A stretch of DNA of 64,000 nucleotides, from NCBI GenBank assembly GCA_963664405.1, contig OY761158.1, forward strand, positions 768,001-832,000. Direction: 5' to 3'. The notes beneath the pieces are model-generated. The model saw nothing but the letters and a program-made list of their open reading frames with translations, did not search any database and was not told where the DNA came from. Made by a program: the position numbers and the translations under genes. Of the stretch, positions 1-37,857 are shown in pieces (within the stretch, counting starts at the first letter, position 1; the number at the start of each line of letters is the position of its first letter). Origin of the DNA: Thermoanaerobaculia bacterium. Lineage in GTDB: Bacteria; Acidobacteriota; Thermoanaerobaculia; Multivoradales; Multivoraceae.

Positions 1-159
1 CACGGCCGCGCCGATCACCGAGGTGAGCGTGTAGTACGTGATCTCGGCATCCCAGGGCTCTGCACGACCGGTGATCAACGGTGAAGCGGCCCAAATACCA
101 AAGCCCAACGCGGAACTGAAGGACATCGGTGCCAACCCTCGAGGAAGGGATCCCTTCAC
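1..159 (-). CDS. Small membrane protein, partial (runs off the left edge)
   Basis: GTG at 159 overlaps the TGA of the upstream ORF. Reads MKGSLPRGLAPMSFSSALGFGIWAASPLITGRAEPWDAEITYYTLTSVIGAAV with no stop before base 1. Confidence 0.55.
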   Translation of the reverse strand, partial: MKGSLPRGLAPMSFSSALGFGIWAASPLITGRAEPWDAEITYYTLTSVIGAAV

Positions 160-455
160 GACTCCCGAGCCTCCTTGATTCTCACGAGGAGAACCGCCAC
201 GACCCAGGCGACAAAGCACCAGACTGCGACCACGAGCCCAACGGCAAACGGGGTCTCTGGTTCCGGCCCGAAGTCAGTGATGCCGAAGTGGTTCGGAAGA
301 AAGAAGGAAAAGGGCACCGCGGCCAAGCTCCAAACGACGAGAGGCAACAGAGCAAGAATCCCGAGGGGACCAGCGTGAATCAGTACCGGTGGAGAATTGA
401 AGGCGATCGCCAGAAAGAGAGTCAGCCAAAGGGTCCGGTGAACTATACGGGACAT
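156..455 (-). CDS. Hypothetical membrane protein (99 aa)
   Basis: ATG start, about three hydrophobic segments, stop overlapping the next start codon. Confidence 0.55.
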   Translation of the reverse strand: MSRIVHRTLWLTLFLAIAFNSPPVLIHAGPLGILALLPLVVWSLAAVPFSFFLPNHFGITDFGPEPETPFAVGLVVAVWCFVAWVVAVLLVRIKEARES

Positions 456-556
456 GACGAACTGGTTTTCGTGACTCGGGAATGCTCCCGGAGACTCGAG
501 TGTACTCCTGAGGTATCCATACGGAGCCGACTCAGGAGGTACTCTGCCTCGTGGGG

Positions 557-583
557 TGTCGTGATTCCTGGCGAATTGCGACA
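557..583 (+). repeat. 27-bp palindromic site, copy 1
   Basis: TGTCGT-gattcctggcgaatt-GCGACA. Confidence 0.85.
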
Positions 584-633
584 GGGTCCCAAGCTCCTTG
601 CACGAAACGATAGAGACACGCAGAGGACCGCGA

Positions 634-1608
634 TCAACCGGCGACAGAATCGTGCAGCGGAGAGGCGAGAGCCAGCCTCTTGAGGTGCACCAGCGGCCCC
701 TCGTCGGTCAGGCTGCGAAAGAGCGGACGGGCCGTGGCCAGAGCCGCCTGTCTCGCCGAGACCGCTTGCTCCACTAGGCGACCCAGCGCGACGAACGTCG
801 TGGAATCCGCACCCTCGAGTCGAGTCGCCAGAGGCCGGAGGAGTCGGATGTGGCATGCGGCATCGTGGTAGTCCCCGAGAGTTTCCTGCAGTCGCTTCAG
901 GTCGCGCATCAGGGGCTCGATCTCCCGCGTGGAGTACAGGGGACCGAAAGACTGAACTAGGTAGCGCCAGCGTTTGCCGGCTATTCGGAAACGGTGGACC
1001 GAGCTCGCCTTCTCGTCCTTCAAGGCTCGCTCGCCGCGTTTTCTGGCCCTCTTCAAAGCCTTCCCCAGGCAGAGTCGCGCCTGGGTCCCGACGTGCCGAG
1101 CCCCCAGGGTGCCCGACGGTGCTCTCTCCGTCCCCTCCGCCAGCGCCTGCCAGCGGTCGAGGAGACATCCCAACCGTTTCGACTCGAACCCTCGACGAAC
1201 TTTCGTGCGCTCGTCCCCCCGCCGCTCTTCAAGAATTGCGAGGACCGGCCCTAGCGCCTTCTGCTCGGGCGCCGAGAACGACCCGGCCGCCTGATGGAGA
1301 GCGCGGATCTGAACATCGAGGTCCCGCGAGGGGCTCGTGAGGCGACCTAGCCAACGCAACTCGCTGGCGAGAATCTCGACGCCCGCATCGGGAAGGGCGT
1401 CCGCGAGGTCTGACAGAAGCGAGCGTGCCCACCGAACCACGACGCGGAATCTGTGCAGCTCCCGAGCCTCTCCTCTGCAGGCCCCCGGCTCGACCTTGAT
1501 CAGAGCCCAGCGAAGGTGATCGAGCTCCCGCCGCATGGCTGCATCCATCCGCATGGACGGATGGAGTCGGTAGCCCGGACGGGAAGCTGAGAGTCGGGTG
1601 TGGGACAT
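634..1608 (-). CDS. CHAD domain protein (polyphosphate/metal binding)
   Basis: Motifs LHRFRVVVR, RDLDV, VHRFRIAGKRWRY and LQETLGDYHDA. ATG at 1608 is preferred over the longer ORF start, which runs through the repeat region. Confidence 0.88.
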   Translation of the reverse strand: MSHTRLSASRPGYRLHPSMRMDAAMRRELDHLRWALIKVEPGACRGEARELHRFRVVVRWARSLLSDLADALPDAGVEILASELRWLGRLTSPSRDLDVQIRALHQAAGSFSAPEQKALGPVLAILEERRGDERTKVRRGFESKRLGCLLDRWQALAEGTERAPSGTLGARHVGTQARLCLGKALKRARKRGERALKDEKASSVHRFRIAGKRWRYLVQSFGPLYSTREIEPLMRDLKRLQETLGDYHDAACHIRLLRPLATRLEGADSTTFVALGRLVEQAVSARQAALATARPLFRSLTDEGPLVHLKRLALASPLHDSVAG

Positions 1609-1750
1609 GGTCGTCACCTCTTCGGAACCCCCGAACAGGCGACTTGCCACCCTAACAGACCCAGAAGATGTGCGCGGGTGGGCGACTTCCTCACGCTCCT
1701 GCCAGGCCTCCGATCTCCCGCTGAGGACTCGCGTAGTACCCGATTGGCGT

Positions 1751-1844
1751 TGTCGCACTTCGTGGCGGTTCGCGACAAGAATAGCCGAACCTCGATAGAA
1801 CGCCGAAGTCGGCGAATTGTCGTAGTTCCTGGTGCTTTGCGACA
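1751..1844 (+). repeat. Paired 27-bp sites (1751-1777 and 1818-1844)
   Basis: TGTCGC-acttcgtggcggttc-GCGACA and TGTCGT-agttcctggtgcttt-GCGACA, starts 67 bp apart. Confidence 0.9.
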
Positions 1845-1902
1845 TCACAATTCGAGCTCTGAGCCGCTGATCCACCGGGCGACTGTAAGATGTTGCCAAC
1901 TC

Positions 1903-2181
1903 ATGGCTCTAGAACCAGGCTCCCGCCTCGGTCCCTACGAGATCGTCGAGCTGCGCGGCAAGGGCGGCATGGGAGAGGTGTACCGGGCCCGAGACACCCG
2001 TTTGGATCGGGACGTGGCGGTCAAGGTCCTTCCCACCGAACTGAGCGAAGACGAGACCTACCGCAAGCGCCTGGAGCGGGAGGCGAAGACGATCTCGCAG
2101 CTCCATAATGGCTTGGCTAAGCCGAAGTGGGTTGCGAGGTACAACAAGAAGCTCGCCAAGCAGGCGACGAAGGGACGGTAG
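1903..2181 (+). pseudogene. Truncated Hanks-type Ser/Thr kinase (N-lobe only)
   Basis: MALEPGSRLGPYEIVELRGKGGMGEVYRARDTRLDRDVAVKVL..AKTISQLH. Similarity is lost at about 2106 and a stop follows at 2181; no HRD or DFG motif. Confidence 0.88.
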
Positions 2182-2192
2182 AGGGTAACACC

Positions 2193-2456
2193 GTGAAACT
2201 AGTTGGGCAGCGTCTGACTGCAGCAGTCCGGCTTCTTTCAGGAATGATCAGTGGTCGTCACCTGAACGTCAAGGTCGACGTATCCCCTGCGGTCGGGGAG
2301 AATCTCTGGGAATTCGAGGACGCAAGGGACGACCTTGGCCGATTTCCGATAAGCCTCGTAATGAAACTCATAGACGGAGGGCTGCTCGAAAAGGATCTCG
2401 AGAGCGGCAACCTGTTTATCACTGACGAAGGGAGGCGCTGGCTAGGGGAGCCGTAG
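2193..2456 (+). CDS. Hypothetical protein, C-terminus resembling a winged helix
   Basis: GTG preceded by GAGGG; C-terminal KLIDGGLLEK..LFITDEGRRWL. Confidence 0.4.
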   Translation: MKLVGQRLTAAVRLLSGMISGRHLNVKVDVSPAVGENLWEFEDARDDLGRFPISLVMKLIDGGLLEKDLESGNLFITDEGRRWLGEP

Positions 2457-2551
2457 GGTGCGGTGCCGATGCGGCACGCGCGCAAGCCCCGAATCAGATC
2501 CACGCTCTGGTCACCAATGGACCCGATGGCCTTCGCAGTCGCGTCAAGGGC

Positions 2552-2821
2552 TTGTCGCTTCTCCGACTCGCAGCACGGGCCCGACGGTGGCGTGCAGGCG
2601 ACATTGAGGATCCCCTGAATGATCCCGAATGGGTTGACGACCGCAGGAGAGTCCTCGCTGAGACTGGGGAGAGACTTCTGGCCATGTGGAAGAACAACCA
2701 CGCCTTCACAGTTAGTATGGGTTCATCCAGCGAAGACGTTTGGCGACTATTCAAGTCGGGCAAGTACTCCGACGGAGAGATCGTCGAGAAGTTGAGAGCT
2801 TGTGTTCTAGAGCCGCCGTAA
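2552..2821 (+). CDS. Hypothetical protein or gene fragment
   Basis: 89-aa ORF with protein-like composition, ending just before a repeat site. Confidence 0.3.
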   Translation: MSLLRLAARARRWRAGDIEDPLNDPEWVDDRRRVLAETGERLLAMWKNNHAFTVSMGSSSEDVWRLFKSGKYSDGEIVEKLRACVLEPP

Positions 2822-2828
2822 ATCCGGT

Positions 2829-2855
2829 TGTCGCAATATCTGGCGAAGCCCGACA
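2829..2855 (+). repeat. 27-bp site (one mismatch), with a degenerate partner at about 2895
   Basis: TGTCGC-aatatctggcgaagc-CCGACA followed by CGAATAC; TGTAGC lies 66 bp downstream. Confidence 0.75.
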
Positions 2856-3142
2856 CGAATACATCGAACCGAAAGGGGCCAACGAGAAGCGGGATGTAGC
2901 AGCTTTCGACGGGAGACAACGCACCGGCGAGCCCCCCGAAAACCAGCAGCTGGGATAGAATGGACGATCCACGGCCCACGATGGGAGCCCCACCTCGGAG
3001 GGGCCTCCTGGAAGCGGGCGACGTGCCCCCACAAAGCCGGTGCTCGAAGGGGGCGTCAATCTTCGAGAGTCTACGCACGGAGCGGGGGCGGGACTGCAGG
3101 CCCGCGAAATGCCCGAGAGCCTACTAGCCCAGGAGTACGAAT

Positions 3143-4837
<1,695 letters not shown>

Positions 4838-4860
4838 GAGAGTCGGCGCCATCGGAAGCC

Positions 4861-4952
4861 TGTCGCAAAATGTGGCGGTCTGCGACACGAATAGCCAGCT
4901 CCACATAGACCTCACAGAGCGGATTTGTCGCCTTTTGTGGTGCCTTGCGACA
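4861..4952 (+). repeat. Paired 27-bp sites (4861-4887 and 4926-4952)
   Basis: TGTCGC-aaaatgtggcggtct-GCGACA and TGTCGC-cttttgtggtgcctt-GCGACA, starts 65 bp apart. Confidence 0.9.
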
Positions 4953-5012
4953 GCACAGATCGAGCTCTGAGCCGCTGATCCACCGGGCGACGGGTATGAT
5001 GTCGCCAAGTCA

Positions 5013-7682
5013 ATGGCTCTAGAAGTTGGCACTCGCCTCGGCCACTACGAAGTGCTCTCCTCCCTCGGTGCAGGAGGCATGGGAGAAGTGTATCGAGCGA
5101 AGGACACGAAGCTCGGTCGCGAGGTAGCAGTCAAGCTCCTGCTCGACGAGGTCTCTTCTGACCCGGAGCGTCTAGCTCGCTTCGAGCGCGAGGCGCGGGT
5201 TCTGGCCTCGCTCAACCACAAGAACATCGCCAGCCTCCACGCCTTCGAGCGTGAGGGTGACACGGGCTTCCTGGTCATGGAACTGGTCGAGGGCGAGACT
5301 CTGGCCGATCGGATCGCTCACGGCCCGATTCCCGTCGAGGAGGCGATCCCTCTGTTTCTCCAAATCGCCGAGGGGCTTGAGGCAGCGCACGAGAAGGGAG
5401 TGATCCACCGGGATCTCAAACCCGCGAACATCAAGGTCACCGACGACGGCAACGTCAAGATTCTTGACTTCGGTCTGGCCAAGGCAATGGCCCCGGCGAC
5501 GGGGCCGGAGAGCGACCCTTCGGAATCGCCCACGCTGACCCAGGCGGCCACGCTCCGAGGCCAGATCCTCGGCACGGCGGCCTACATGTCGCCTGAGCAA
5601 GCCAAGGGGAAAGAGGTCGATAGAAGGGCCGACGTCTGGGCCTTCGGCGTGTGTCTCTACGAGGCGCTGACGGGATCGAGGGCGTTCCGCGGCGACGATG
5701 CCGCCGACACGCTGGCAGCGGTGCTCAGAGCGGAGATCGACTGGGGCAAGCTCCCCCCGGCGACGCCGAGAGCGATCAGGAGACTGCTCCGACGGTGTTT
5801 GACGAAGGACCCGCGGGAGCGCCTTCACGACATCGCCGACGTTCGGATCGAGATCCGAGGAGTGCTCGAGCAGCCGGACATCGACGCGCCAGCCGGTGGC
5901 GAGGCGGCACCAGCCCGGCGTCAGGTATCGGCGGTCCTTGCCGGAGCACTCGCCCTCCTGACTCTGGCGGCCGGTCTCGTCCTCGGCTTCGTCCTGGACC
6001 GGGGTGGGGAGGAGGACGCGGCCAGCGACGCTGCCTCGGCCGACACCTGGACGGTCACGGCTCTCGACCTCGAGGCAGCTCCGGGTCTGCCCTTCGTGCT
6101 CTCTCCGGACGGTCGGATGGTGGTCTTCATCCGTCGCGAGGGAGCCGAGACCAGCCTCTACCGGCGCTCTCTCGACTCCCTGGTCGCCGAGCGCATCTCC
6201 GGCAGCGACGGTGCCGTCTTCCCGATCTTCTCGCCCGACGGCCAGCAGCTTGCCTTCAGGGACGGCGGGGGCAGTTTGAAGACGCTTCCCGTGGAGGGTG
6301 GAGGCGCCAGCGCTCTGGTGGACGGGCTCCCCAATGTCTGGGGGCGCGATGGTTTCCTCTACTACACCCTTGGCCAAGGCTTCACCACGTCTCTTGAGCT
6401 ATGGCGGATTCCGGCGGGTGGGGGTGTCCCCGAGCAGGTGGGGCATGGCACCGGCGGAGCGCTTCTGCCGGGTGAACGGGTCGCCCTGGCCAACTTGAGA
6501 TCCGAGCGTCCGGACGGCTTCTGGAGCGATGTTCGGGCGGTGGACCTCGAGACTGGCGAGGAACGGGTTCTCCTCCCTGGGGCGGAGCCGTTCTATCTCG
6601 ACCCGGGGTTTTTGGTCTTCTATCGCGAGAGTGGACTGTGGGCGGCGCCGATCGATCCCGAGACCGCCGCCCTCCTCGGCCCAGCGCGTCAGGTCGAGAA
6701 CGGGGTGGCTCCGGTCCTCGTCGCTGGCGTCGATATCGGCAGCTTCTCGCTCGCAGACTCGGGCGACCTGCTCTACGTTCTCGGGAGTCACAGTTTGCCC
6801 CGCCTGGTCTGGGTGAGTCGGAACGGCCTGGATATCGAGGAGCTGGCGCCGGATCGCAAGTCTTTCGGGTTCCTGAATCCCTCCCTGGACTGGCGCCGGA
6901 TCGCGGTCAGCGCCCGCAACGACAGGGGGAACTACGAGCAGTGGATGCTCGACCTCGAGACCGGCTCCTGGACCCGCCCGACCCAGGAGGGGAATCGCAA
7001 CACTGGCGCGATGTGGGTGCCGCCCGACGGCCAGGAGATCGTCTTCATGTCGGATCGCTTCGAGGGGCGCTTTCAGATCTACATCCAGCCCGCCGATCGC
7101 GGGGCCCCGGCGGAGCGTCTCGTACCGTCGGAGCACGAACAGGCACCGCTGGATTTCTCCCCGGACGGGCGCTACCTGCTCTACACGAACCTCGATGTCC
7201 CCGGACTCTGGGTCTTCGACCGGGAGAGCGGGGAGTCCGAGACCCTCCTCGAAGGGAACTTGGTCCACGCCGCCCGCTTCCACCCCACCGGACGTTGGAT
7301 CACCTACTCGATGGTCGTTCAGGGCGAGGAGAACGTCTGGATCCGGCCCTTCCCCGGTGCCGGCGAGCCGCGCCAGCTCACCTCCGACGGCGGCCAGGAG
7401 CCCGATTTCTCCCCCGAAGGCAGCGAGATCCTCTACCGCAGCCCGACCCACATGATGACGCTCCCGATCGAGATCTCCGGCGAGGATCTCGTCACCCGGC
7501 GTCCCGAGCCACTCTTCGAGGATGATTACCTGCGCTTGGGAGGGCGCTTCCAGAACTACGCCGTCCACCCCGACGGTCGCTTCCTCATGATCCAGGCGGC
7601 AGAGGCCGAGGAGGAGCGTCTAGTCTTGGTCCAGAACTGGCGGGCCAAGGTGCTCGAGATGTTCTCCGAGGGGGGCTCGTGA
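5013..7682 (+). CDS. Ser/Thr protein kinase with a transmembrane helix and a TolB/PD40-like beta-propeller
   Basis: GAGGMGEV, VAVK, HRDLKPAN, DFGLAK, GTAAYMSPE; hydrophobic segment; repeated FSPDG motifs. Confidence 0.95.
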   Translation: MALEVGTRLGHYEVLSSLGAGGMGEVYRAKDTKLGREVAVKLLLDEVSSDPERLARFEREARVLASLNHKNIASLHAFEREGDTGFLVMELVEGETLADRIAHGPIPVEEAIPLFLQIAEGLEAAHEKGVIHRDLKPANIKVTDDGNVKILDFGLAKAMAPATGPESDPSESPTLTQAATLRGQILGTAAYMSPEQAKGKEVDRRADVWAFGVCLYEALTGSRAFRGDDAADTLAAVLRAEIDWGKLPPATPRAIRRLLRRCLTKDPRERLHDIADVRIEIRGVLEQPDIDAPAGGEAAPARRQVSAVLAGALALLTLAAGLVLGFVLDRGGEEDAASDAASADTWTVTALDLEAAPGLPFVLSPDGRMVVFIRREGAETSLYRRSLDSLVAERISGSDGAVFPIFSPDGQQLAFRDGGGSLKTLPVEGGGASALVDGLPNVWGRDGFLYYTLGQGFTTSLELWRIPAGGGVPEQVGHGTGGALLPGERVALANLRSERPDGFWSDVRAVDLETGEERVLLPGAEPFYLDPGFLVFYRESGLWAAPIDPETAALLGPARQVENGVAPVLVAGVDIGSFSLADSGDLLYVLGSHSLPRLVWVSRNGLDIEELAPDRKSFGFLNPSLDWRRIAVSARNDRGNYEQWMLDLETGSWTRPTQEGNRNTGAMWVPPDGQEIVFMSDRFEGRFQIYIQPADRGAPAERLVPSEHEQAPLDFSPDGRYLLYTNLDVPGLWVFDRESGESETLLEGNLVHAARFHPTGRWITYSMVVQGEENVWIRPFPGAGEPRQLTSDGGQEPDFSPEGSEILYRSPTHMMTLPIEISGEDLVTRRPEPLFEDDYLRLGGRFQNYAVHPDGRFLMIQAAEAEEERLVLVQNWRAKVLEMFSEGGS

Positions 7683-7694
7683 GACGGTTGGTCG

Positions 7695-7787
7695 TGTCGC
7701 CCTTGGTGGCGCACTGCGACACAGATAGCCGGAAGCAGATAAGCCGCCGCGCAGAGGGGCTGTCGTGAAATTCGGTGGAAGGTGACA
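7695..7787 (+). repeat. Paired 27-bp sites (7695-7721 and 7761-7787)
   Basis: TGTCGC-ccttggtggcgcact-GCGACA and TGTCGT-gaaattcggtggaag-GTGACA, starts 66 bp apart. Confidence 0.85.
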
Positions 7788-7826
7788 ACAGCCACAGAGG
7801 TTCTCGGCGCCAACTAGAATGCTTGC

Positions 7827-9827
7827 ATGAGCCTCGACATCTTTCTAAGCGAGGTGGTGGTGCTTCTGGCGTCGGCCGTCGTCGTGATGCTGGTCAGCGT
7901 GCGGCTCCACGTGCCGCCCATCGTGGCGCTGCTCGCTACGGGCGTCCTCATCGGCCCACACGGGCTCGGCTGGATCTCAAGTGTGCGCGAGGTCGAGCTC
8001 TTCGCGGAGGTGGGCGTCGCCCTACTACTCTTCACCATCGGTCTGGAGGTGTCGATCGATCGCCTGCGCAAGCTGCGCCGGGCACTCCTGCTCGGCGGCT
8101 CGGTGCAGGTTTCGCTGACGACCGTCGTCGTGACCGGCGTCGCTGCTGTCGGGCTGGGTCTGCCCTGGCTCCACGCTCTGTTCATAGGGTGGGTGGTCTC
8201 GCTTTCGAGCACCGCTCTTGTGCTCAAGCTGCTCAGCGATCGGCGCGAGACCGAGACGCCGCACGGTCAGCTCGCTCTTGCCATCCTGCTCTTCCAGGAC
8301 TTTCTGATCGTGCCGATGATCGTCTTGACTCCTTTCCTGGCAGGCACCCTCGGATTCTCGATTGGCGCGTTCCTGGGCCGTCTCGCGGGGGCGGTGGCCG
8401 CCCTCGCTGTCGTCTTTCTTATCGGGCGCCGGCTCTTGCCGCGGCTCCTCGAGGTCGTCGTGCGCTCTGGCGCGCGCGAGGTCTTGCCGCTAGGGGCCCT
8501 GGCGCTCTGCCTCGGCATAGGCTGGCTCACCCATTCGTTTGGGTTCTCGCTCGCCATCGGCTCCTTCCTGGCGGGCGTTCTGCTCGCGGGCAGCCTCTAC
8601 TCTCACCAGGTAATCGCTGACATCGCACCGTTCCGGGATCTGTTCTCGAGTATCTTCTTCATCTCGATCGGGATGCTCCTAGACGTGGGGTGGGTCGCGG
8701 CGCGTCCGGGCACGGTGATCGCGGTAGCGGCAGGCATGATCGCACTGAAGATCGTTACGGCGGGCGCCGCCGTGGCAGTTCTAGGGTATCCCGTACGGAC
8801 CGTGGTGCTCTCCGCACTCGCACTCGCCCAAGTCGGCGAGTTCTCGTTCGTTCTGATGGAAGTGGGCCTGGAGAACGGCCTGCTGATCGGTGGACGCTTT
8901 CAGCTGCTCCTGGCGGCGGCGGTCGTGACGCTGCTGGCGACGCCGGTAGTTGTGACAGTCTCGCACCGGCTTTCGGCCTGGCTGGGCGGTCTAGTTCCGT
9001 CACGTCGCGCAACGGCGACCCAGCAGCCCACTGAGGGCGAGGAATCGGATCACGTAATCATCGTGGGCTTCGGCGTCGGAGGGCGGCTGCTGGCCCGCGT
9101 TCTGCGGGAGGGAGGCATTCCCTACATCGTGGTCGAACTCAGCGGCGAGCTCGTACGCTCCGGGCGACGCGAGGATGAGCCCATGCTGTACGGCGACACG
9201 ACGCGCGAGGAGATTCTTCGGCGCGCCGGAATCGAGCGAGCGAACGTAGTGGCTTTCGCCATCTCCGACATAGCCGCTGTGCTCCTAGGGGTGAGGCTCG
9301 CGCGGCGGCTGGCCCCTGGCGCGCAGATCATCGTGCGAACCCGCCTGGTGAGCGAAATCGAAGGGCTGCGGGCGGCAGGTGCCGATCAGGTCGTGGCGGA
9401 GGAGTTCGAGACCGCGATCGAGGTCTTCACGCGCGTGCTGGAGCGCTACCATGTGCCACGCAATATCGTCCGAGCGCAGACTCGCGTGCTGCGGGGCGAG
9501 GGCTATCGCATGCTGCGCTCTTCGTCGCTCGATCGCACGGTCTCGCAAGCCGTACTCGACGCCCTCGCCGCGGGCACTACCGACGTCTACCTGCTCAACT
9601 CCGACACTGTCGTGCGGGGCCGGAGCCTGCGCGAGCTCGATTTGCGCCAGCGCACCGGGGCCACTGTCATAGCGGTCGTGCGCGACGGCTTGTCGCAACT
9701 CAACCCCGAGCCAGACCTCTCCCTCGAGCCGGGCGACAGCCTGGTGCTGGTGGGCAGCCACCAGGAGATCGACGGCGCGTTCGACCTCCTGGCGAGCTTC
9801 GAGGAAGACCTCGAACGTCCTGAGTGA
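7827..9827 (+). CDS. Monovalent cation:proton antiporter-2 (Kef-type) with TrkA-N and TrkA-C domains
   Basis: AEVGVALLLFTIGLE, LSSTA, LLFQD, LAQVGEFSF; IIVGFGVGG Rossmann motif; C-terminal ELDLRQRTGATVIAVVR. Confidence 0.93.
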   Translation: MSLDIFLSEVVVLLASAVVVMLVSVRLHVPPIVALLATGVLIGPHGLGWISSVREVELFAEVGVALLLFTIGLEVSIDRLRKLRRALLLGGSVQVSLTTVVVTGVAAVGLGLPWLHALFIGWVVSLSSTALVLKLLSDRRETETPHGQLALAILLFQDFLIVPMIVLTPFLAGTLGFSIGAFLGRLAGAVAALAVVFLIGRRLLPRLLEVVVRSGAREVLPLGALALCLGIGWLTHSFGFSLAIGSFLAGVLLAGSLYSHQVIADIAPFRDLFSSIFFISIGMLLDVGWVAARPGTVIAVAAGMIALKIVTAGAAVAVLGYPVRTVVLSALALAQVGEFSFVLMEVGLENGLLIGGRFQLLLAAAVVTLLATPVVVTVSHRLSAWLGGLVPSRRATATQQPTEGEESDHVIIVGFGVGGRLLARVLREGGIPYIVVELSGELVRSGRREDEPMLYGDTTREEILRRAGIERANVVAFAISDIAAVLLGVRLARRLAPGAQIIVRTRLVSEIEGLRAAGADQVVAEEFETAIEVFTRVLERYHVPRNIVRAQTRVLRGEGYRMLRSSSLDRTVSQAVLDALAAGTTDVYLLNSDTVVRGRSLRELDLRQRTGATVIAVVRDGLSQLNPEPDLSLEPGDSLVLVGSHQEIDGAFDLLASFEEDLERPE

Positions 9828-9866
9828 ATGGGGTTCTGTCGACCGACTACCGGCCGAAAGTGCTGA

Positions 9867-9893
9867 TGTCGCACTCTTCGGCGGCAAGCGACA
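9867..9893 (+). repeat. 27-bp site, with a half-site partner at 9933
   Basis: TGTCGC-actcttcggcggcaa-GCGACA-CGAATAG; TGTCGT lies 66 bp downstream. Confidence 0.85.
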
Positions 9894-10095
9894 CGAATAG
9901 ATCGAACTGAATGGGCTTCCAGAACGCCGTGTTGTCGTCTCTCTTGGTAGGTGATCCTGCTCGGCTGTCATCGAGTGACCTACGGTCCTTCTACACTTCT
10001 GCGATCTTCACCATGATGTGCGGGCGTAAACGGGCGTCACTATAGACTCGACCGCCCAGAGGTAGGCCGCTCGGGACAGGAGAAGCGCATCTGCC

Positions 10096-10461
10096 ATGCT
10101 GCGAATGAGCGTCGAGCAGTTCGAAGAGGTCGTGGCGGAGGCGCTCGGGGAGATTCCCGCGGACCTGGCCGAACGCATCGAGAACGTCACCGTGATGGTC
10201 GAGGGCGAGCCCCAGCGCGAGCTGCTCGTAGATCTCGGCATGGACCCGGACGAGGACCTCCTCTTTGGCCTCTACGAAGGCGTTGCTCTACCAGAGCGCG
10301 ACACGAACTACGCGGGCACCCTGCCCGACCGCATCCTCATCTATCGACTGCCGTTGCTCAAGGCCTGTGAGACCCGCGGTGAGCTGCGGCGCGAGATCCG
10401 GCTGACAGTGATCCACGAGCTCGGGCACTACTTCGGCCTCGAGGAGGAAGAGCTCCCCTGA
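10096..10461 (+). CDS. Zincin-like metallopeptidase (Zincin_1/DUF1025 family)
   Basis: LFGLYEG..LPDRILIYR..IRLTVIHELGHYFG. Confidence 0.9.
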   Translation: MLRMSVEQFEEVVAEALGEIPADLAERIENVTVMVEGEPQRELLVDLGMDPDEDLLFGLYEGVALPERDTNYAGTLPDRILIYRLPLLKACETRGELRREIRLTVIHELGHYFGLEEEELP

Positions 10462-10525
10462 GGGTTGAGGGACAGGTGCGCGGAGCTTGGCAGCTCAGGC
10501 TTCAGCCGAAAAACGTCAGGCAGCG

Positions 10526-10552
10526 TGTCGCACTTGGTGGCGAAGGGCGACA
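10526..10552 (+). repeat. 27-bp site
   Basis: TGTCGC-acttggtggcgaagg-GCGACA. Confidence 0.88.
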
Positions 10553-10681
10553 GCACGAAAGCGGGCTTCTGCGCGTTGCCGGTAGAATGTCGCTCACTGG
10601 TGCCCACAGACTGAGAGATGTCTTCTGCTGAGATTCAGGATTTCCTCTACCCTCATCCTGGCGGTCCACGCGGTCGTCGCC

Positions 10682-11062
10682 GTGGTACACGACTTGGCAC
10701 ACCGCGACCTAGGCATCGAGCTGACCGAGGCCCAAACCACCTACATCAACCTGATCATCGTCGCGGCACCCGTCGTCGCTGTCATTCTCGTGTGGACAAG
10801 GTTCAAGACGGCTGGGGCCATACTCTTCGCTTTCGCCATGGCCGGCTCCCTTCTCTTTGGCCTCTACAATCACTACCTTCTCGTATCGCCCGACCACGTG
10901 TCCTACCTACCCGACGGCGATCTCCAGTCTGCCTTCCGGATCACCGCTTCGCTCCTGGCGCTCCTCGAGGCTCTGGGAGTGGCAGTTGGAATCTGGGGGG
11001 TCATTCTCGGCCGGGGCTCCGAAGGCAAAGGACCTGGAGTGCCGAGCGCGAGCGTGTCGTGA
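10682..11062 (+). CDS. Hypothetical membrane protein (true start probably further upstream)
   Basis: Several TM segments with His residues (YNHYLLVSPDHV). The frame is open upstream (ISSTLILAVHAVVAV) but has no ATG, GTG or TTG there. Confidence 0.7.
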   Translation: MVHDLAHRDLGIELTEAQTTYINLIIVAAPVVAVILVWTRFKTAGAILFAFAMAGSLLFGLYNHYLLVSPDHVSYLPDGDLQSAFRITASLLALLEALGVAVGIWGVILGRGSEGKGPGVPSASVS

Positions 11063-11205
11063 TTTGTGGCGCAAACATCATGGGATGGCGCGCGGGTGGC
11101 GCCCCCGGACGATGTCGATGAATATTCTTGAGTGGTCCTCCCCCGAAGGCGTCAAGCTTAGGGAAACACAAACACCTGGGCTTGGACCCAGGAAGGAGGA
11201 CCAAG

Positions 11206-12240
11206 ATGGAACGATACCTTGGCATCGATCCCCACCGCGACAGCTGCACGCTGGCGTTGGTGAGCCCGCGAGGCAAGAAGGTCAAGCAGATGGTGGTGCC
11301 GACCGAAGGGTCGGAGCTGGTCAAGACGGTGCGGGAGCTTCGAGGGCCGCTGCACGTCTGTGTGGAAGAGGGCGAGTGGGGCGAGTGGATCTCAGAGATT
11401 CTGACACCGTGGGTGGCTCGCCTGGTGGTCTGTCGGCCCGAGAAGCGTCGAGGTCCGAAGAGCGATGCCTGCGATGCTCGGGAGCTGGCAGAGCGTCTGC
11501 GGACGAATCGGACGGGCCCGCCGGTGTACAAGCCCGGGCAGGAGTGGGCTCGTTTGCGCGAAGCGGTGCGCCTGGAGTCGAAGCTGACCCAGGATCTGAC
11601 TCGCACGAAGCTGCGCTTGAACAGCCTTTACCGTCGGCGGGGGGTGACGTGCCCCAACGGCGACCTCTACCTACCACGGCATCGCTCGAAGTGGGTAAAA
11701 CAGCTGCCTCCGAGCGGACGTCCGTGCGCGGAGATCTGGGGCGAGCAGATCGATTTGCTCGCAGAGCTCCACGAGAAAGCAGAGAAACAGATGCACGCTG
11801 CGGCTGCGCAGTTTCCGGTCTGGAGCACGCTGCAGACCGCACCGGGGATTGCCAAGAAGCGAGCCGCGATCCTGCTCGCAACGGTGGTCACACCGCACCG
11901 GTTTCGCACCAAGCGGCAGTTTTGGTCGTACTGTGGTCTGGGAATCGTGACTCGGAGCTCCTCGGACTGGGTCCAGCAGTCCGGGCACTGGGTGCGTGCA
12001 CCGGTGATCCAGACCCGCGGTTTGAATCGGGCATCCAACCGGCCGCTGAAAGCGGTCTTCAAGGGCGCGGCGCTCTCAGCGCGCACGATGTTGGCGCCCA
12101 ACCCCTTCCGCAACCACTACGACCGCATGCTAGAAGCCGGGACGAACCCGAACCTGGCGCAGCTGACGCTGGCGCGCAAGCTCGCGGCCATCGTTTTGGC
12201 GATGTGGAAGACCGAAAGCGAGTACAAACCCATGAGCTGA
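11206..12240 (+). CDS. IS110-family transposase (DEDD recombinase)
   Basis: RBS GGAAGGAGG; YLGIDPH, CVEEG, KSDACDA, LQTAPGI, FWSYCGL..RSSS, LARKLA. Confidence 0.93.
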   Translation: MERYLGIDPHRDSCTLALVSPRGKKVKQMVVPTEGSELVKTVRELRGPLHVCVEEGEWGEWISEILTPWVARLVVCRPEKRRGPKSDACDARELAERLRTNRTGPPVYKPGQEWARLREAVRLESKLTQDLTRTKLRLNSLYRRRGVTCPNGDLYLPRHRSKWVKQLPPSGRPCAEIWGEQIDLLAELHEKAEKQMHAAAAQFPVWSTLQTAPGIAKKRAAILLATVVTPHRFRTKRQFWSYCGLGIVTRSSSDWVQQSGHWVRAPVIQTRGLNRASNRPLKAVFKGAALSARTMLAPNPFRNHYDRMLEAGTNPNLAQLTLARKLAAIVLAMWKTESEYKPMS

Positions 12241-12613
12241 TCCACCCCTTCTCCGCTCCTTGCTCGAGCCGTCTGCAGGCTGACGTAGCTCAGGAGCCTG
12301 GATCGAGAGCGGGATCGGCAGCGAGATCGAAAGGTCGAGGGGAAGTCTCCACTGTCGTCATCGGCCCCATCGAAGACGGTGGAAGTCACCAGGCGCAAAC
12401 TAGGCCCCCTCACAGGACCGAAAGAAGAAATGGCCTAAGAGGCCCCGTTGGGAAGTTGGTCCACAAACCTAGTAGGACACCAAAACTCGCTTCTTATCTC
12501 CAACGCCGCACCGCTCACACAACCGATCTGAGGACCGAACTGCGCGTAGCGGACCGGCTCGGTAACGGAAAGTACCGCGCTCGATATCAAGTCGTCGAGG
12601 GCCTAGGAAAGAT

Positions 12614-13897
12614 GGCTCTTCAGGATTTCGTGTGGGCAACAGGCCTCGGGTAGAGATCGAGTCCTCCAAGATGGAAGTAGATGGCGTTACGGAATCGCTC
12701 CCGATTACGGAATCCTCGCGCGGCTCTTTTGATGTTCTGGATCTTGGTGTTGAGGCCCTCGGACATGGCGTTGGTGACGCCGGTCTTCATGGCGTTGACG
12801 ATGCCCCACAGGTAATGGCGTAGGGTTTTGGCCACCTTCTTGATGGGAGCGAGGCGGGAACGGATCGCCCAGGAGTACCAGGAGGCCCAGGCCTGTTCGG
12901 CGTCGTCCGCGGCGCTGGTCTCCCACACGGTCATCGCCAGCTCCTTGATCGCCCAGGCCCGTGCCGTTTTCAGTGCGCTATTGCGAAGCTCCTCGAAGCG
13001 AAGCTCCTGCTCCGAGGTCATGTGGTCGGGATTGCGCAACCAGAGGTAGCGAGTCCCACTGAGCCGATCGTCGCCATCCGAGCGAAGGTCTCGATGTTCC
13101 TGGCGACGGACACGATCGACGGCGTCACCCAGAAGCTTGGCGACGTGAAACTTGTCAAAGACGATGCGCTCAAGCGGCTTGTCGAGATGCTCGCTGGCCG
13201 CCGAGATGTAGGGGCCCCACATGTCCATCGCCAGCGTCTCCACCTGGCTAAGCCACGACGCTGGAGCACCTTGCAAAAACTTCCCTAGAGCTTCCCGACC
13301 CCGACCGTCCGCGACGTGAACCACCGTCCCGTGACTGCTGTCCACGACCACCGTGACGTACTCGTGCCGGCGTTGAAACGACGTCTCGTCTACACCCAGA
13401 TGGCGGGTCGGGCGCAGCGTTCTGCGGGCCAATCCTCGGCCCACGGCACGCTGCTGAACCCCGTCGATCTGATCCCAGCTCAAACGCAGAAGCCGGGCAA
13501 CAGCCGAGAGATTCGACTCTCCAAGCCAGTCGATCGCCAGCCGCTCGAACTGTGCCGTGAAGCCCGAGCCGACCTCGGCCCACGGCACACGAACCTGACG
13601 GACGCCGTGATCTCCGCACTTCACACGAGGAACCTCCGCGACCAGAACCGTCATGTACTGCATCGTGTCGAGGTGACGCCACTTGCGCTCACGCGTGTCG
13701 TAGCGCGGACTCGCCGCTCCGCATTCCGGACACGCTAGCTTCCGTGACCCGTTCTCCAAGTGCACTTCCACCGTCTCTGGACCTAGCTCGACATCTGTCA
13801 CATGCCACGGCTCCTCGATCCCAAGAAGCTGGGCGTAAAGCTCTCGATCTCGCATACTCGCAGCATACGATCAACCCACACGAAATCCTGAAGAGCC
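12614..13897 (-). mobile_element. ISL3-family insertion sequence
   Basis: Perfect 23-bp terminal IRs GGCTCTTCAGGATTTCGTGTGGG (12614-12636 and 13875-13897); 8-bp target duplication GGAAAGAT (12606-12613 and 13898-13905). Confidence 0.96.
12620..13855 (-). CDS. ISL3-family transposase
   Basis: CPECG zinc finger, LGVDETSF, AMDMW, IVFDKFHV, TNAMSEGLNTKIQ..ARGFRN. Confidence 0.96.
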   Translation of the reverse strand: MRDRELYAQLLGIEEPWHVTDVELGPETVEVHLENGSRKLACPECGAASPRYDTRERKWRHLDTMQYMTVLVAEVPRVKCGDHGVRQVRVPWAEVGSGFTAQFERLAIDWLGESNLSAVARLLRLSWDQIDGVQQRAVGRGLARRTLRPTRHLGVDETSFQRRHEYVTVVVDSSHGTVVHVADGRGREALGKFLQGAPASWLSQVETLAMDMWGPYISAASEHLDKPLERIVFDKFHVAKLLGDAVDRVRRQEHRDLRSDGDDRLSGTRYLWLRNPDHMTSEQELRFEELRNSALKTARAWAIKELAMTVWETSAADDAEQAWASWYSWAIRSRLAPIKKVAKTLRHYLWGIVNAMKTGVTNAMSEGLNTKIQNIKRAARGFRNRERFRNAIYFHLGGLDLYPRPVAHTKS

Positions 13898-13968
13898 GGA
13901 AAGATTTGTCTTGACATCTCATCCCTTGGGAAACGACAGCCATAGCTCGATCCGCATAAAGAGACGCA

Positions 13969-14898
13969 ATGAAGACATTGAAGCGTATTACCCTGCTCGG
14001 AATACTCATGACAGCACTCGTGGCCTGCCCGGCTGCGCCCCCGGGGAGCTCGACTGATGAGGAGGCTGCCGTAAGGAGGGGCACACAGAGATTTCTGAAG
14101 GCCCACAGCCTCAAAGACTGGCCTGCTGTCGCTGCGACGTATACGGAGGACGCCGTTCTCCATCCACCCAACGCAGGCCCGGTGAAGGGCCGGGACGAGA
14201 TTCAAGAGTGGTTCGAAGCGAACGAGCAGTACACGAGCCTGGATCTGGAGATAGCCGAGATCGATGTCCGTGCGGACCTGGCCTACGTCTGGGGACTCTC
14301 CACGATAACGATCGAGGAACCAGGAAGAGAGCCGGTGGTCCTTTCGGGAAAGTACTTGGACATTCGACGGAAGCAGCCCGATGGCGACTGGCTGATCTCC
14401 GTCGATATGTTCAGCCCGAGTGAAGAATTAGGTGTAACAAATGTCGTCGGGTCAGTCGAGCCCTACGTCCAGAGCTGGGAGGAAGGAGAGATGCTCGTCG
14501 ACTCGAAGGGTCGAAAGACGTTCATCAAGGTCAGCCCTGAAACCGGAGCCCAGAGCCTGGCGTTTTTTGTTCAGCAGATGCCCTCGGGTTCCGGAATCAA
14601 GGTCCACCGACACAGCCGTGCAGAGGAAGTGCTGTTCGTACACGAGGGCTCCGGGACCTTTGTCGTGGGCGACGGGCGCGTACCCGTCGAGAAGGGGGCC
14701 ACGGTCTTTGTCCCGCCCGGCGTGTGGCATGGCTTCGAGAACCCAGACGAGCAGGTCGACCTGGCCTTCGTGGTGACACCAACCGGGCTGGAAGGTCTCT
14801 TTCGAGAGCTGTTCTGGCGCGAAGGCGAGGAGCCGAAGGTGTTCACTCCCTCGGAGATCGAGGAGATCGAACGCAAGCACGGCCAGCCCAGTCGCTGA
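13969..14898 (+). CDS. Putative lipoprotein: SnoaL/DUF4440-like (NTF2 fold) domain fused to a cupin
   Basis: Lipobox-like LVAC; YTEDAVLHPP..GKYLDIRRKQPDGDW; cupin HRHSRAEE..VPPGVWHGFEN. Confidence 0.8.
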   Translation: MKTLKRITLLGILMTALVACPAAPPGSSTDEEAAVRRGTQRFLKAHSLKDWPAVAATYTEDAVLHPPNAGPVKGRDEIQEWFEANEQYTSLDLEIAEIDVRADLAYVWGLSTITIEEPGREPVVLSGKYLDIRRKQPDGDWLISVDMFSPSEELGVTNVVGSVEPYVQSWEEGEMLVDSKGRKTFIKVSPETGAQSLAFFVQQMPSGSGIKVHRHSRAEEVLFVHEGSGTFVVGDGRVPVEKGATVFVPPGVWHGFENPDEQVDLAFVVTPTGLEGLFRELFWREGEEPKVFTPSEIEEIERKHGQPSR

Positions 14899-14904
14899 CG
14901 CTGC

Positions 14905-14931
14905 CGTCGCGATTCATGGCGCAGCGCGACA
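14905..14931 (+). repeat. 27-bp site (last copy seen)
   Basis: CGTCGC-gattcatggcgcagc-GCGACA-CGCATAGCTCG, a few bases after the stop codon at 14898. Confidence 0.8.
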
Positions 14932-15033
14932 CGCATAGCTCGACCCGAATAAGTACCCAGAAAAGGCTCTCTAGAGCCGGCTCTCAGCGAGGAGCTGGCG
15001 ATGCCCTCCCGCCAGTCTTTGATGGACTGTGCC

Positions 15034-15123
15034 ATGAGATACCAACACAAACGTGAGCCACTGTCGATTGAGGAAGCCGATCGAATCATCAACGCCTGCG
15101 AGACAATGGAGGAGAAGATCGCG
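15034..15123 (+). pseudogene. Probable N-terminal remnant of a short tyrosine recombinase/integrase
   Basis: MRYQHKREPLSIEEADRIINACETMEEKIA resembles the start of a phage-integrase catalytic domain just before the LLxTGLR box, which is missing. Recognised from memory, not by search. Confidence 0.55.
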
Positions 15124-15453
15124 TTGGGGCAATCCCTTCACCGAGCATCACCTTCATCCAGAGTCGGCTTGCCGATAGGTTCGCTTGAACCTCTCGCCTA
15201 CCTGCACCTCGACGTTCCAGCCTTCGACGAGGACACCGAGCTCCGGAGATGGTGCATCCAGTGGAAGGCCGAGAACCGGGTATTCGGTGAACAGAGTGTC
15301 GAGGAACGGCACCACGAAGGCGTCATACCGCTCCGAATCCGAGGCATGGTTCTCCCAGAGCGAAATCAGCAATGTCCTCGCATCGTCCGACTCAGCAACC
15401 CTAGATACGCGCCACGCGCCCCAAGAGCGCTCAAAGAGGCACTCGCTCGACCT

Positions 15454-15993
15454 TCATCTTGGCTTTAGTCTCGCGCGGATGTACTCACATGCGTTGTCAG
15501 TGCACCGCGACAGGACGAACCTGCCGTCCGTGATCACGGCTCTCACCGTGTGGGCGGTGATGACCTCGCCGTCTATCAACAGGGCGACGTTCTTGCCGAG
15601 ATTCTCGCGAGACATGCGTTCGGCAGTGGCTGCTGCCCTAGGGGTGAGCGTGAAGGACAGCTCCGTAGTCCCCAGCCGCCCTTGCCACGATCGTACGGGT
15701 TCTGCCAACTCTAGAGGGACATCGGCGTGCTCGTGGAGGATGAAGTACCTTGCTGGGCGCGCCTCATCCTCGCGCAGGAACTTGTGGTCGTGCTTTGTGA
15801 CCTGCTCTCCGGGGCCTAGAGGTCGGAGATCCTCCTTTGAGCTAGCCTCTGCGAGGATGAGAAACATCCCGGTGTCGGAACCGGTGTCTTCTTGTGCGAA
15901 TGTCGTAGCAGCCCCGATGCCCACCCATGCGCCAACAACAGCGATCAAGGCAACGAGCAGCAGCCGCTGCGAGACTTTGTGGATGTCAGTCAC
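15454..15993 (-). CDS. Exported protein with a SecD/SecF P1-head-like domain
   Basis: Signal peptide; LSFTLTPRAA..ENLGKNVALLIDGEVITAHTVRAVITDG. Confidence 0.65.
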   Translation of the reverse strand: MTDIHKVSQRLLLVALIAVVGAWVGIGAATTFAQEDTGSDTGMFLILAEASSKEDLRPLGPGEQVTKHDHKFLREDEARPARYFILHEHADVPLELAEPVRSWQGRLGTTELSFTLTPRAAATAERMSRENLGKNVALLIDGEVITAHTVRAVITDGRFVLSRCTDNACEYIRARLKPR

Positions 15994-16228
15994 TTCGATC
16001 CTCTATCAATACTACTACCGGGGCCGTGGCATGCGCCTTGTAGAGGAGGGGCGGGGCGGCAGTACTCCGCCGAAGGGGTGGCCCCACCTTCTCCCGAGTA
16101 GCCCGGTGGCACACATTGTCGTGGAAGGTGAAAGCAGGAAGCCACTGTTGAATCGCTTACGCTGCCGCCTCGGGTAGGATCCCAACGCACCGGATTCGCT
16201 AGAACCCACTAAGTAGGGCACCCGCGGG

Positions 16229-36993: not shown

Positions 36994-37857
36994 ATGCCCG
37001 ATCTCGACGACTTTGATCTCCGGGACTCCGACCCGCCGGAATCGCAACTCGAGCAGCCCACAGCGGACAACGACGGGCCTCAGCGCTCCAGCCGGATGCT
37101 GGTGGCGGGGGGAATCGGCATCGTCATCGTAGTCATTGTTGCCTTCTGGGGACTGTCGCGGACAGTCGAGACTCCAGTACCGGAGCAAGTCGTGCGGCCT
37201 GCTCCTGTTGCAGAGCCCACTCCGGCCCCTCCCCCGCGAGTCGAGGTGGCCGCGGCGGACGAAGGACCGCTCCCCGACCTGGAGGACAGCGACGGCCTGG
37301 TAACCGAAATACTTCGGGGCCTTTCGAGCAGTTCCGCCCTCCTTCGCTGGCTCACCGAACCTGGCCTGGTCGAGCGTTTCGTCGCCAGTATCGAAAATGT
37401 CAGCGTGGGCTCCAGCCCCCGCTCGAACCTATCGGCGATGGCGCCCCGGGGGAAGTACCAGGTCCGAAACCGCGACGGTGTTCTCGAGACAGATCCCTCG
37501 AGCTACCAACGCTACAACGTCGTCACTCAAGTCTTCACCAGTCTGAATCCGCAAGCGACGGCGGCGGTATACAAGCGCTTGCGACCGCTCCTTCAAGAGG
37601 CCTTTTTGGACCTCGGCTATCCCGGTCAGGAGTTCGAGGACATTCTCGCTGAAGCCTTCAACACCCTCCTGGAAACTCCCATCCCGGCGAGTCCACCGAC
37701 GCTCGAAGGCAGTGTCGGCATCTACCACTACGCCGACGACGAGCTCGAATCGTCACTCCCTGCCCAGAAGCTGATGTTGCGTATGGGGCCCGACAACCAG
37801 CGACAGATCAAGGCTCAGCTGCGCCGCTTAGCCGCCGCTATCGGCCTCGAGCTCTAG
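36994..37857 (+). CDS. DUF3014-like membrane-anchored protein
   Basis: Single TM, Pro-rich linker, LPDLEDSD, SYQRYN, AFLDLGYP, AQKLMLRMGPDN. Confidence 0.85.
   Translation: MPDLDDFDLRDSDPPESQLEQPTADNDGPQRSSRMLVAGGIGIVIVVIVAFWGLSRTVETPVPEQVVRPAPVAEPTPAPPPRVEVAAADEGPLPDLEDSDGLVTEILRGLSSSSALLRWLTEPGLVERFVASIENVSVGSSPRSNLSAMAPRGKYQVRNRDGVLETDPSSYQRYNVVTQVFTSLNPQATAAVYKRLRPLLQEAFLDLGYPGQEFEDILAEAFNTLLETPIPASPPTLEGSVGIYHYADDELESSLPAQKLMLRMGPDNQRQIKAQLRRLAAAIGLEL

Follow-up and report, generated by a model that had tools for sequence, protein, structure and literature searches.

A 64 000-bp stretch of the genome of a Thermoanaerobaculia bacterium (Genbank assembly GCA_963664405.1), referred to hereafter as the window, carries in its first 15 kb a series of copies of a 27-bp sequence, TGTCGY-N15-RCGACA, lying between genes of unrelated function. 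This sequence is probably the recombination site of a minimal Xer-like tyrosine recombinase that has built integron-like cassette arrays. We consider it an even question whether the system amounts to a second, integron-independent cassette platform, in which a 175-amino-acid (aa) recombinase reduced to its catalytic domain acts on duplex 27-bp sites, with a family distributed over plasmids, phages and islands in many phyla, and which in this acidobacterial lineage has become a multi-array engine capturing, copying and reshuffling cassettes and driving the expansion of sensor Ser/Thr kinase and accessory genes.

Occurrence of the 27-bp site in the window

The window represents bases 768001-832000 of a single contig of 6.78 Mb (OY761158.1; 62.6% GC). 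Eight exact matches to the pattern were identified in it, all within 557-10552, against an expectation of 0.03 from dinucleotide-preserving shuffles, none of 100 of which reached eight. Tolerating one mismatch added the sites at 2829, 7761 and 14905. Using a 27-bp weight matrix trained on 86 oriented copies from the genome, with a site called at 12 bits or more, the 11 intact window sites scored between 20.8 and 37.9 bits. A twelfth site is interrupted by an element of the IS110 family (IS, insertion sequence), its left 17 bp being located at 11055-11071 and its right part, the last 9-10 bp, at ~13930-13938.

The arms of the site are inverted copies of one word, the outer 5 bp (TGTCG and CGACA) being invariant, and an asymmetric GGYG core occupies positions 14-17. 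An earlier account of the window (the preliminary description) had listed 12 copies, one of them split by an IS110 element, all pointing the same way and absent from the remaining ~49 kb. The count of 12 was confirmed, as was the shared orientation, with the core (G14, G15 and G17) facing the same way in 11 of 11 intact copies. The absence from the rest of the window also held, the matrix scan detecting no site of at least 12 bits at 15000-64000, where other pattern matches with 1-2 mismatches (22, against 11.3 expected) were at chance level. The splitting by IS110 was correct too, with the amendment that this IS110 element itself contains a nested ISL3 element. According to their cores, the window sites belong to two classes, A and B:

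557..583, plus strand: A-class site, core TGGCG, 37.9 bits
1751..1777, plus strand: A-class site, the first of a pair A-39 bp-B
1818..1844, plus strand: B-class site, core TGGTG, followed by a conserved kinase-type leader
2829..2855, plus strand: A-class site with one arm mismatch (CCGACA), 29.6 bits
4861..4887, plus strand: A-class site, 23 bp past the stop of a sigma factor gene
4926..4952, plus strand: B-class site, 60 bp ahead of a kinase start
7695..7721, plus strand: A-class site, 12 bp past the kinase stop
7761..7787, plus strand: B-class site with one arm mismatch (GTGACA), 25.2 bits
9867..9893, plus strand: A-class site, core CGGCG, 20.8 bits
10526..10552, plus strand: A-class site
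11055..11071, plus strand: left 17 bp of an A site, which IS110 interrupts exactly behind core position 17
13930..13938, plus strand: right part of the split A site (ending in ACGACA), then the usual ATAGC spacer
14905..14931, plus strand: last A-like site of the array, left arm CGTCG, 23.8 bits

Genome-wide distribution, site classes and array heads

The whole genome contained 100 exact copies of the pattern and 127 distinct matrix sites (reversed-genome control at the same threshold, 3+5). The sites were clustered rather than dispersed: 102 of the 127 fell into seven arrays of 12-24 sites, which together span 160.5 kb or 2.4% of the genome. Ordinary sites were all co-oriented inside each array, the only inverted site being the C site of the array head described below. 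The window holds just the distal 15 kb of the largest array, which extends over 35 kb (genome 747662-782905) and has 24 sites.

A sites, with the core (T)GGCG, numbered 61 distinct copies, 42 of which lay within 400 bp past the stop codon of a co-oriented gene (median 12.5 bp), and usually preceded a spacer beginning with ATAGC. B sites, with the core GGTG, numbered 39 distinct copies (42 occurrences) and were often found 39 bp beyond an A site, that is, 66 bp from start to start. A co-oriented start codon followed within 400 bp in 29 of the 42 (median 60 bp), and B sites ahead of kinase genes were followed by a conserved leader of ~50 bp, in which a -10-like hexamer is a visual impression only. 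Each array opens with a head consisting of an inverted C site, 66 bp and a B site; the C site is an A-like site in inverse orientation that lacks GGYG, and the head also contains an extra half-site.

Two further features of the non-coding sequence were observed. In three heads (genome 747530-747662, 3944640-3944777 and 6523239-6523370), ~120-135 bp beyond the C site, on the side facing away from the array, are conserved at 90-95% identity. The 39-bp spacer after A sites keeps the motif ATAGC...(G)ATAA/G (for example, window 1778-1817, 4888-4925 and 7722-7760), which also occurs in metagenome-assembled genomes (MAGs) of other Acidobacteriota (L019, L023 and L025) and could be a site for an accessory protein.

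Mosaic sites and near-identical cassettes

The 150-bp flanks of 107 oriented sites were compared in all pairs, with one-sided sharing defined as an identity over 60 bp of 85% or more on one side and 45% or less on the other. The right flank alone was shared by 70 pairs, the left flank alone by 19 and both flanks by one. When identity was followed inward from a shared flank, it stopped inside the site: for 10 of the 19 pairs alike on the left this was at position 18, and for 22 of the 70 alike on the right at position 13, with another 20 of the 70 stopping at position 20 and having only the kinase leader in common. The left half of a site thus belongs to the upstream unit and the right half to the downstream unit, and the switch between half-sites falls in or beside the invariant core. 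The site at 557 is an example, its left half and upstream flank being common to the site at genome 4989797 while the right halves differ.

Cutting the arrays at site position 17/18 produced 88 units, including 28 gene-less A-to-B mini-units of 57-67 bp and 19 kinase-bearing B-to-A units of 2754-2806 bp. Two larger A-to-A units occurred in near-identical copies. One, of 66+3742 bp and encoding a kinase-AAA_16-TPR protein, was 100% and 99.8% identical in its two parts between genome 31978-28171 and 755766-759573; the other, of 830/834 bp, was 99.0% identical between 767744-768573 and 4990640-4989807. In both cases the copies lay in different arrays with different neighbours, and the limits of identity coincided exactly with the GGCG cores on both sides. 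Identical 66-bp A-to-B mini-units were likewise found between unrelated flanks, which indicates that B sites too are crossover points. The suggestion of the preliminary description that gene modules are shuffled at the sites thus gains support, half-sites assorting with their flanks and near-identical cassettes occupying different arrays.

Watson-Crick pairs between the arms at positions 6/22, 7/21 and 8/20 were found in 52, 34 and 24 of 104 sites (shuffle means 52.8, 35.7 and 23.7). The lack of covariation means that the halves assort independently, as in a duplex site. With this result, and with nothing relevant returned by an Rfam search of window 1-16000 at E <= 1, an RNA element, a terminator, a hairpin or a folded single-strand site was dropped as an explanation. 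Public runs under two organism labels contained 79-89% of the words sampled from the window. Publicly available assembled contigs from four runs break at the repeats, with joints (for example, 1789 to 7757, 13931 to 1772 and 12605 to 13898) that match paralogous junctions elsewhere in the genome.

A short tyrosine recombinase at array borders

The genome yielded 25 Phage_integrase matches, several of them near arrays; five are parts of an IS91-family element with Y2_Tnp alongside. One was an intact short recombinase gene (genome 5456065-5456601) encoding 175-179 aa that represent essentially the catalytic domain alone (PF00589, 3.4e-29; residues 16-167 of the 179-aa open reading frame, ORF). 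It is situated at an array tail, flanked by an A site on one side and a B-like site on the other. The recombinase was encountered at array borders three times in all, once intact and twice as a remnant: a 3' remnant, 52% identical over an alignment of 46 aa, was located 195 bp away from the head at genome 873849, and a 5' remnant follows directly after the last window site at 14905 (window ~15022-15120). The window sequence 14932..15120 aligns with the intact copy and with a metagenomic contig, L027.

The predicted protein has the tyrosine recombinase signature R-K-HxxR-H/W-Y and lacks the N-terminal core-binding domain. Residues R44, K68, H128, R131, H154 and Y163 were invariant in 26 of 26 aligned members of the family. 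A search for relatives identified 1629 proteins at E <= 1e-10; among the 120 matches listed, identities were 57-92% and nearly all sequences had 174-179 aa. The closest named families were XerA, XerC and XerD, all scoring under the family cut-offs, and the nearest solved structures were those of XerA and XerD. No integron integrase reached the TIGR02249 cut-off of 265 bits anywhere in the genome, the best match having 122 bits and the short recombinase itself 68.

Linkage of site and recombinase in other genomes

The surroundings of the recombinase gene were analysed in 80 metagenomic loci encoding homologues of 55-92% identity, with a GC content of 0.31-0.64; in 45 of the 80, the upstream sequence reaches 1 kb or more. 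In the 1.2 kb preceding the gene (72 kb in total), the exact pattern TGTCG-N17-CGACA occurred in 37 copies in 27 loci, against 5 copies in the remaining 297 kb; 28 of the 80 loci had an exact site anywhere, and the reversed pattern did not occur in the 80 loci. With up to one mismatch, 41 of the 80 had a site in the upstream region. Adjacent sites were spaced by 84-95 bp in 17 of 19 pairs, like the heads of the genome studied here, and aligned metagenomic heads followed the same plan as its heads: a B-like site, ~52 bp, a half-site, 3 bp and a C-like site nearest the recombinase. The order recombinase, C, B, cargo was common to L027, the genome at 873.8 kb and the metagenomic loci. In many of the latter, the second head site includes a TATAAT-like hexamer just ahead of the recombinase operon.

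The two closest homologues (L027 and L028, 92% identical) are flanked by an A site at -118 and by a B site at +107. Homology of L027 with the genome starts inside the A site and continues past the gene through the head spacer, the B site and a kinase, so that the two share the recombinase cassette and not its upstream neighbour. Some metagenomic loci are plasmid-like, with adjoining ParA and RepA genes, and others contain TIR or DndB genes. In L036, one additional site lies 1.75 kb away from the head. Many loci have a small ORF without a Pfam match (93-214 aa) between head and recombinase, whose product might bind DNA on behalf of the recombinase, which lacks this function; the present genome has no such ORF beside its copy. 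Examples of the small ORF are:

L036, 3329-3973
L049, 3683-3964
L031, 1630-2013
L033, 3341-3910

Homologues of 52-56% identity annotated as 'site-specific integrase' were also detected on PLSDB plasmids of Cardinium, Candidatus Megaira, Piscirickettsia and Aquicella. Among 20 related genomes, only G008, from another genus, had three sites, two of them as head units located downstream of a GlnS-like gene and of a Zincin_1 gene, respectively; it was also the only one of the 20 with a homologue of the recombinase, which is frameshifted. A strict search for an A site plus ATAGC recovered true A-39-B units in MAGs of other Acidobacteriota.

Proposed mechanism and alternative explanations

From the combination of mosaic sites, near-identical units in different surroundings and linkage to a conserved catalytic domain, we infer that the short protein recombines DNA and that the 27-bp sequence is its site. 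The site would consist of two arms of 10-11 bp around an overlap of 6-7 bp (positions 11/12 to 17), within which strands would be exchanged, and the asymmetric central region with GGYG would set its polarity. Since A and B sites differ at position 16, inside the presumed overlap, A would pair with A and B with B, making them two compatibility classes; heterology in the overlap region blocks tyrosine recombinases, lambda Int, Cre and Flp being established cases. On the recombinase side, the head may serve as an attI-like platform, and the cassette would be the A-to-A unit comprising the 39-bp spacer, the B site, the leader, the gene and the left half of the next A site. Recombination between a circle and an array at like sites would insert a cassette, that between two like sites of one array would delete it and that between like sites on sister chromosomes would duplicate it. 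Such exchanges could have built the seven large arrays, with paralogous sensor Ser/Thr kinases as their main cargo, and the system may still be active.

Several observations weigh against this proposal. The ~10 heads have a single intact short recombinase gene between them, located at the tail of an array and not next to a head. The absence of a core-binding domain from the protein, with invariance confined to the outer 5 bp of each arm, makes a hold on 27 bp hard to account for. The upstream repeats of two plasmid homologues inspected (52-56% identity) have other arm words. Five Acidobacteriota genomes (G021-G025) carry 1-4 A or B sites each and no close homologue of the short recombinase, their best matches (32-51% identity over part of the query) being open frames of 307-550 aa outside the 175-aa family; either sites can be kept where the enzyme is missing, or they are acted upon by a different one, the host Xer proteins for instance. 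No recombination in progress was visible in the short assembled contigs, which break at repeats, and a sigma-70 consensus scan found no promoter downstream of B sites. Array genes were co-oriented with the sites in 57 cases and antisense in 28 of 85 (by a crude gene caller based on GC at third codon positions, with IS genes counted). Finally, a tyrosine-recombinase fold can serve as a pure repressor, as is reported for MrpR of phage SPbeta (PMC10516654).

The alternative that survives best, itself unlikely, is that the sites are operators to which a regulator (the recombinase-fold protein as a repressor or an unrelated dimer) binds, at B sites ahead of kinase promoters and at A sites at the ends of genes, the arrays having arisen by ordinary tandem duplication of kinase genes along with their control regions. 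The fixed distance of B sites ahead of start codons (median 60 bp; 29 of 42 within 400 bp) agrees with it, the TATAAT-like hexamer in the second head site would suggest autoregulation of the recombinase operon, tandem kinase arrays free of the site exist across the order, and MrpR is a reported precedent for a non-catalytic recombinase fold. An operator does not account for break points at the site core, for halves that assort with their flanks or for cassettes 99-100% identical in different arrays with borders exactly at the core; moreover, unrelated cargo (sigma factor, antiporter, sulfatase, PLD and cupin genes) is flanked as well, A sites follow genes that have no B site or kinase downstream, and the catalytic residues are invariant in 26 of 26 homologues. 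The preliminary description had named an operator as one alternative; the part of it that stands is that the sites may bind a protein, and the mosaic structure is what it fails to explain.

Recombination by XerC/XerD of the host or by another full-length tyrosine recombinase, with the 175-aa protein as a passenger or accessory, is a more improbable explanation again. It draws on the resemblance of the 27-bp length, the arms and the 6-7-bp centre to dif-type sites, on the presence of two Xer-like genes in the genome (329 and 340 aa), on the A and B sites kept by G021-G025 without the short recombinase and on the missing core-binding domain. A passenger role is hard to reconcile with the linkage of site and recombinase across a GC range of 0.31-0.64 and several phyla; in addition, the catalytic residues of the short protein are invariant and the sites are co-oriented, whereas pdif modules alternate.

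The other alternative raised in the preliminary description, a repeat similar to repetitive extragenic palindromes (REPs), fared badly. A fuller version of it, in which a repeat like REPs or bacterial interspersed mosaic elements (BIMEs) would be used mainly as a safe landing place by IS110 and hybrid sites would form by homologous recombination between IS copies in different sites followed by precise excision, without a dedicated recombinase, is as improbable as recombination by the host Xer proteins: the site is a short, palindrome-like extragenic repeat near stop codons, two IS110 copies sit exactly at 17/18, the position of the mosaic break, and a third at ~11/12, IS91-type elements also insert ~20 bp past A and C sites, and relatives of IS110 target REPs and attC sites, but in their distribution the sites are the reverse of REPs, 102 of the 127 being packed, strictly co-oriented, into 2.4% of the genome, stem covariation is absent, none of 13 Y1-transposase matches in the genome, the kind expected of REP-associated tyrosine transposases (RAYTs), is near an array, the site pair is linked to the short recombinase in 41 of 80 loci from other phyla (where IS110 was not looked for), and each of many events would need two insertions, a crossover and a precise excision. 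None of these explanations accounts for the core-exact mosaic structure and the cross-phylum linkage together.

Comparison with known systems

A dedicated short recombinase acting on the 27-bp site would make the system one that works like an integron but is not one. It shares with integrons long arrays of co-oriented single-gene modules delimited by a recurring site, a special first site on the recombinase side, hybrid sites whose halves belong to neighbouring cassettes, functionally unrelated cargo, IS110-family elements in sites, and arrays or sites without a nearby recombinase. Every array here starts with a head of the form C-66 bp-B, and the cassette borders are inside the site. It differs from integrons in having no IntI-type integrase, its recombinase being of ~175 aa and without the N-terminal domain, and 27-bp duplex-type sites with invariant outer arms instead of folded attC hairpins of 57-141 bp. 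Pairing of the attC type did not exceed shuffles at 6/22, 7/21 and 8/20 (the GTTRRRY box was not specifically searched). Further differences are the two site classes and the gene-less 66-bp mini-units, kinase cassettes that carry their own conserved leader rather than depend on a platform promoter, and the presence of several arrays per genome.

The pdif modules of Acinetobacter plasmids and dif-integrating elements use sites of ~28 bp, built as 11-6-11 bp, in which the XerC arm differs from the XerD arm and which alternate in orientation around modules. They resemble the present system in their short two-arm sites with a small centre, an Xer-like catalytic domain and modules of one to a few genes. 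Here, by contrast, the sites are co-oriented, a single 5-bp word in inverted copies forms both arms, the sites are linked with a minimal recombinase of their own and arrays have up to 24 sites. The statement of the preliminary description that the site matches neither attC nor pdif was accordingly upheld, there being no arm pairing, no IntI and no alternation of sites.

Cre/loxP, ResD/rfsF and TnpI/IRS are tyrosine-recombinase resolution systems of plasmids and transposons. Metagenomic short recombinases beside ParA/RepA, with a compound upstream site of two full sites and a half-site, have the layout of such multimer-resolution systems; those have one site per replicon, whereas here 127 copies bound chromosomal cassettes. 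The two inverted sites of the head, ~94 bp apart, with a recombinase the size of FimB alongside, also recall the FimB/FimE switch. The head as an invertible switch was rejected, its spacer having the same orientation in all 23 heads aligned (6 from the genome and 17 metagenomic).

To our knowledge, integrons are the only well-established system for storing and reshuffling single-gene cassettes in long arrays. We found no description of arrays of this kind, or of a catalytic-domain-only family with such sites, in a search of literature that covered few subscription journals. If the proposal is correct, cassette platforms evolved more than once, the dozens of paralogous sensor kinases in the arrays of one genome would be explained, and a function could be assigned to a large unstudied family of ~175-aa 'site-specific integrases' (the 1629 relatives, found on plasmids, in phage-like elements and in candidate phyla). 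A recombinase as small as 175 aa, with a polar 27-bp site in two non-cross-reacting classes, would also be a candidate for a compact genome-engineering tool. Even if the sites were only relics of past events, they would document recombinase-driven growth of a gene family.

Cargo genes

The genes of the array portion in the window are:

634..1899, minus strand: CHAD-domain gene (PF05235, 1.1e-40), antisense to the sites
3143..4837, plus strand: full-length RpoD-type sigma-70 paralogue
5013..7682, plus strand: 889-aa Ser/Thr kinase with a PD40 beta-propeller
7827..9827, plus strand: Kef-type K+/H+ antiporter with TrkA domains
10096..10461, plus strand: Zincin_1 metallopeptidase
13969..14898, plus strand: SnoaL/DUF4440 and cupin protein
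14932..15120, plus strand: array tail, comprising the leader and a 5' part of the short tyrosine recombinase gene that runs from ~15022 and breaks off after some 30 codons

The listed start of the CHAD ORF over-extends across the sites at 1751 and 1818. The sigma factor gene is one of three RpoD paralogues in the genome. The kinase at 5013..7682 is of the commonest cassette type, with copies of 88-89% identity in three other arrays. In G008, a Zincin_1 gene likewise precedes a head unit. Past the B site at 1818, window 1900-2100 apparently contains only a 5' kinase fragment, and contig joints from 1973, 1989 and 2085 to 5178, 5157 and 5250 reflect paralogy with the start of the intact kinase.

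Across the seven arrays, the cargo consists mostly of Ser/Thr kinases of ~890-950 aa with PD40 propellers, together with kinase-AAA_16-TPR and kinase-TPR proteins and sulfatase, amidohydrolase, PLD, DUF3604, DUF1326 and DUF5916 proteins. Tandem kinase arrays without a TGTCG site occur across the order. The same site was sought in the kinase arrays of relatives and this idea was dropped, the pattern not being found in 18 of the 20 relatives. In a genome from another genus of the same family (G012; contig C258, locus L012), a tandem kinase array has a different intergenic repeat, a long inverted repeat of ~150 bp resembling a miniature inverted-repeat transposable element (L012 3300-3580, 6220-6480, 7250-7525 and 10950-11345).

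Insertion elements and other recombinases

Two nested insertion elements occupy the interrupted site:

11072..13929, plus strand: IS110-family element with a transposase gene at 11128-12240 (PF01548 and PF02371)
~12606-13897: nested ISL3 element, its transposase gene at 12620-13855 on the minus strand

Contigs connecting 12605 to 13898 represent a copy free of ISL3. Two IS110 copies lie exactly at site position 17/18, the second, at genome 4.986 Mb, having the same insertion point as the window copy, and a third is inverted near 11/12; these insertion points would bracket the proposed overlap region. IS1111-type elements insert in attC sites, and the presence of IS110 in TGTCG sites mirrors this.

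An IS91-family element with a 286-aa integrase-like ORF and a 408-aa Y2 transposase (Y2_Tnp) is present in five copies:

genome 34950-37055
genome 41711-43816
genome 597007-599112
genome 615271-617376
genome 887326-889431

The same end of this element was found ~20 bp downstream of the A sites at 37410, 599467 and 1012223 and of the C site at 41336, a placement that suggests targeted insertion. The 286-aa integrase was rejected as the enzyme of the TGTCG sites, being part of an IS91-family element and not specific to the arrays.

Four small resolvase genes were identified in the genome, one of them at an array tail (6509415-6510104) and another next to a kinase gene (2755041-2655, minus strand). 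Two near-identical copies encode a small serine recombinase of 204-229 aa (loci 2755041-2759040 and 6506590-6510104) with its own hix-like palindromic site; the resolvases were rejected as the enzyme for the TGTCG sites on account of that different site. A kinase gene 89% identical to the window kinase is flanked by direct repeats of ~170 bp carrying the hix-like site, an arrangement suggestive of an independent second route by which kinase genes move. Another multi-copy element, of three genes (523, 269 and 118 aa), adjoins arrays or solo heads at genome 594033-596717, 4414838-4417522 and 6501235-6501600.

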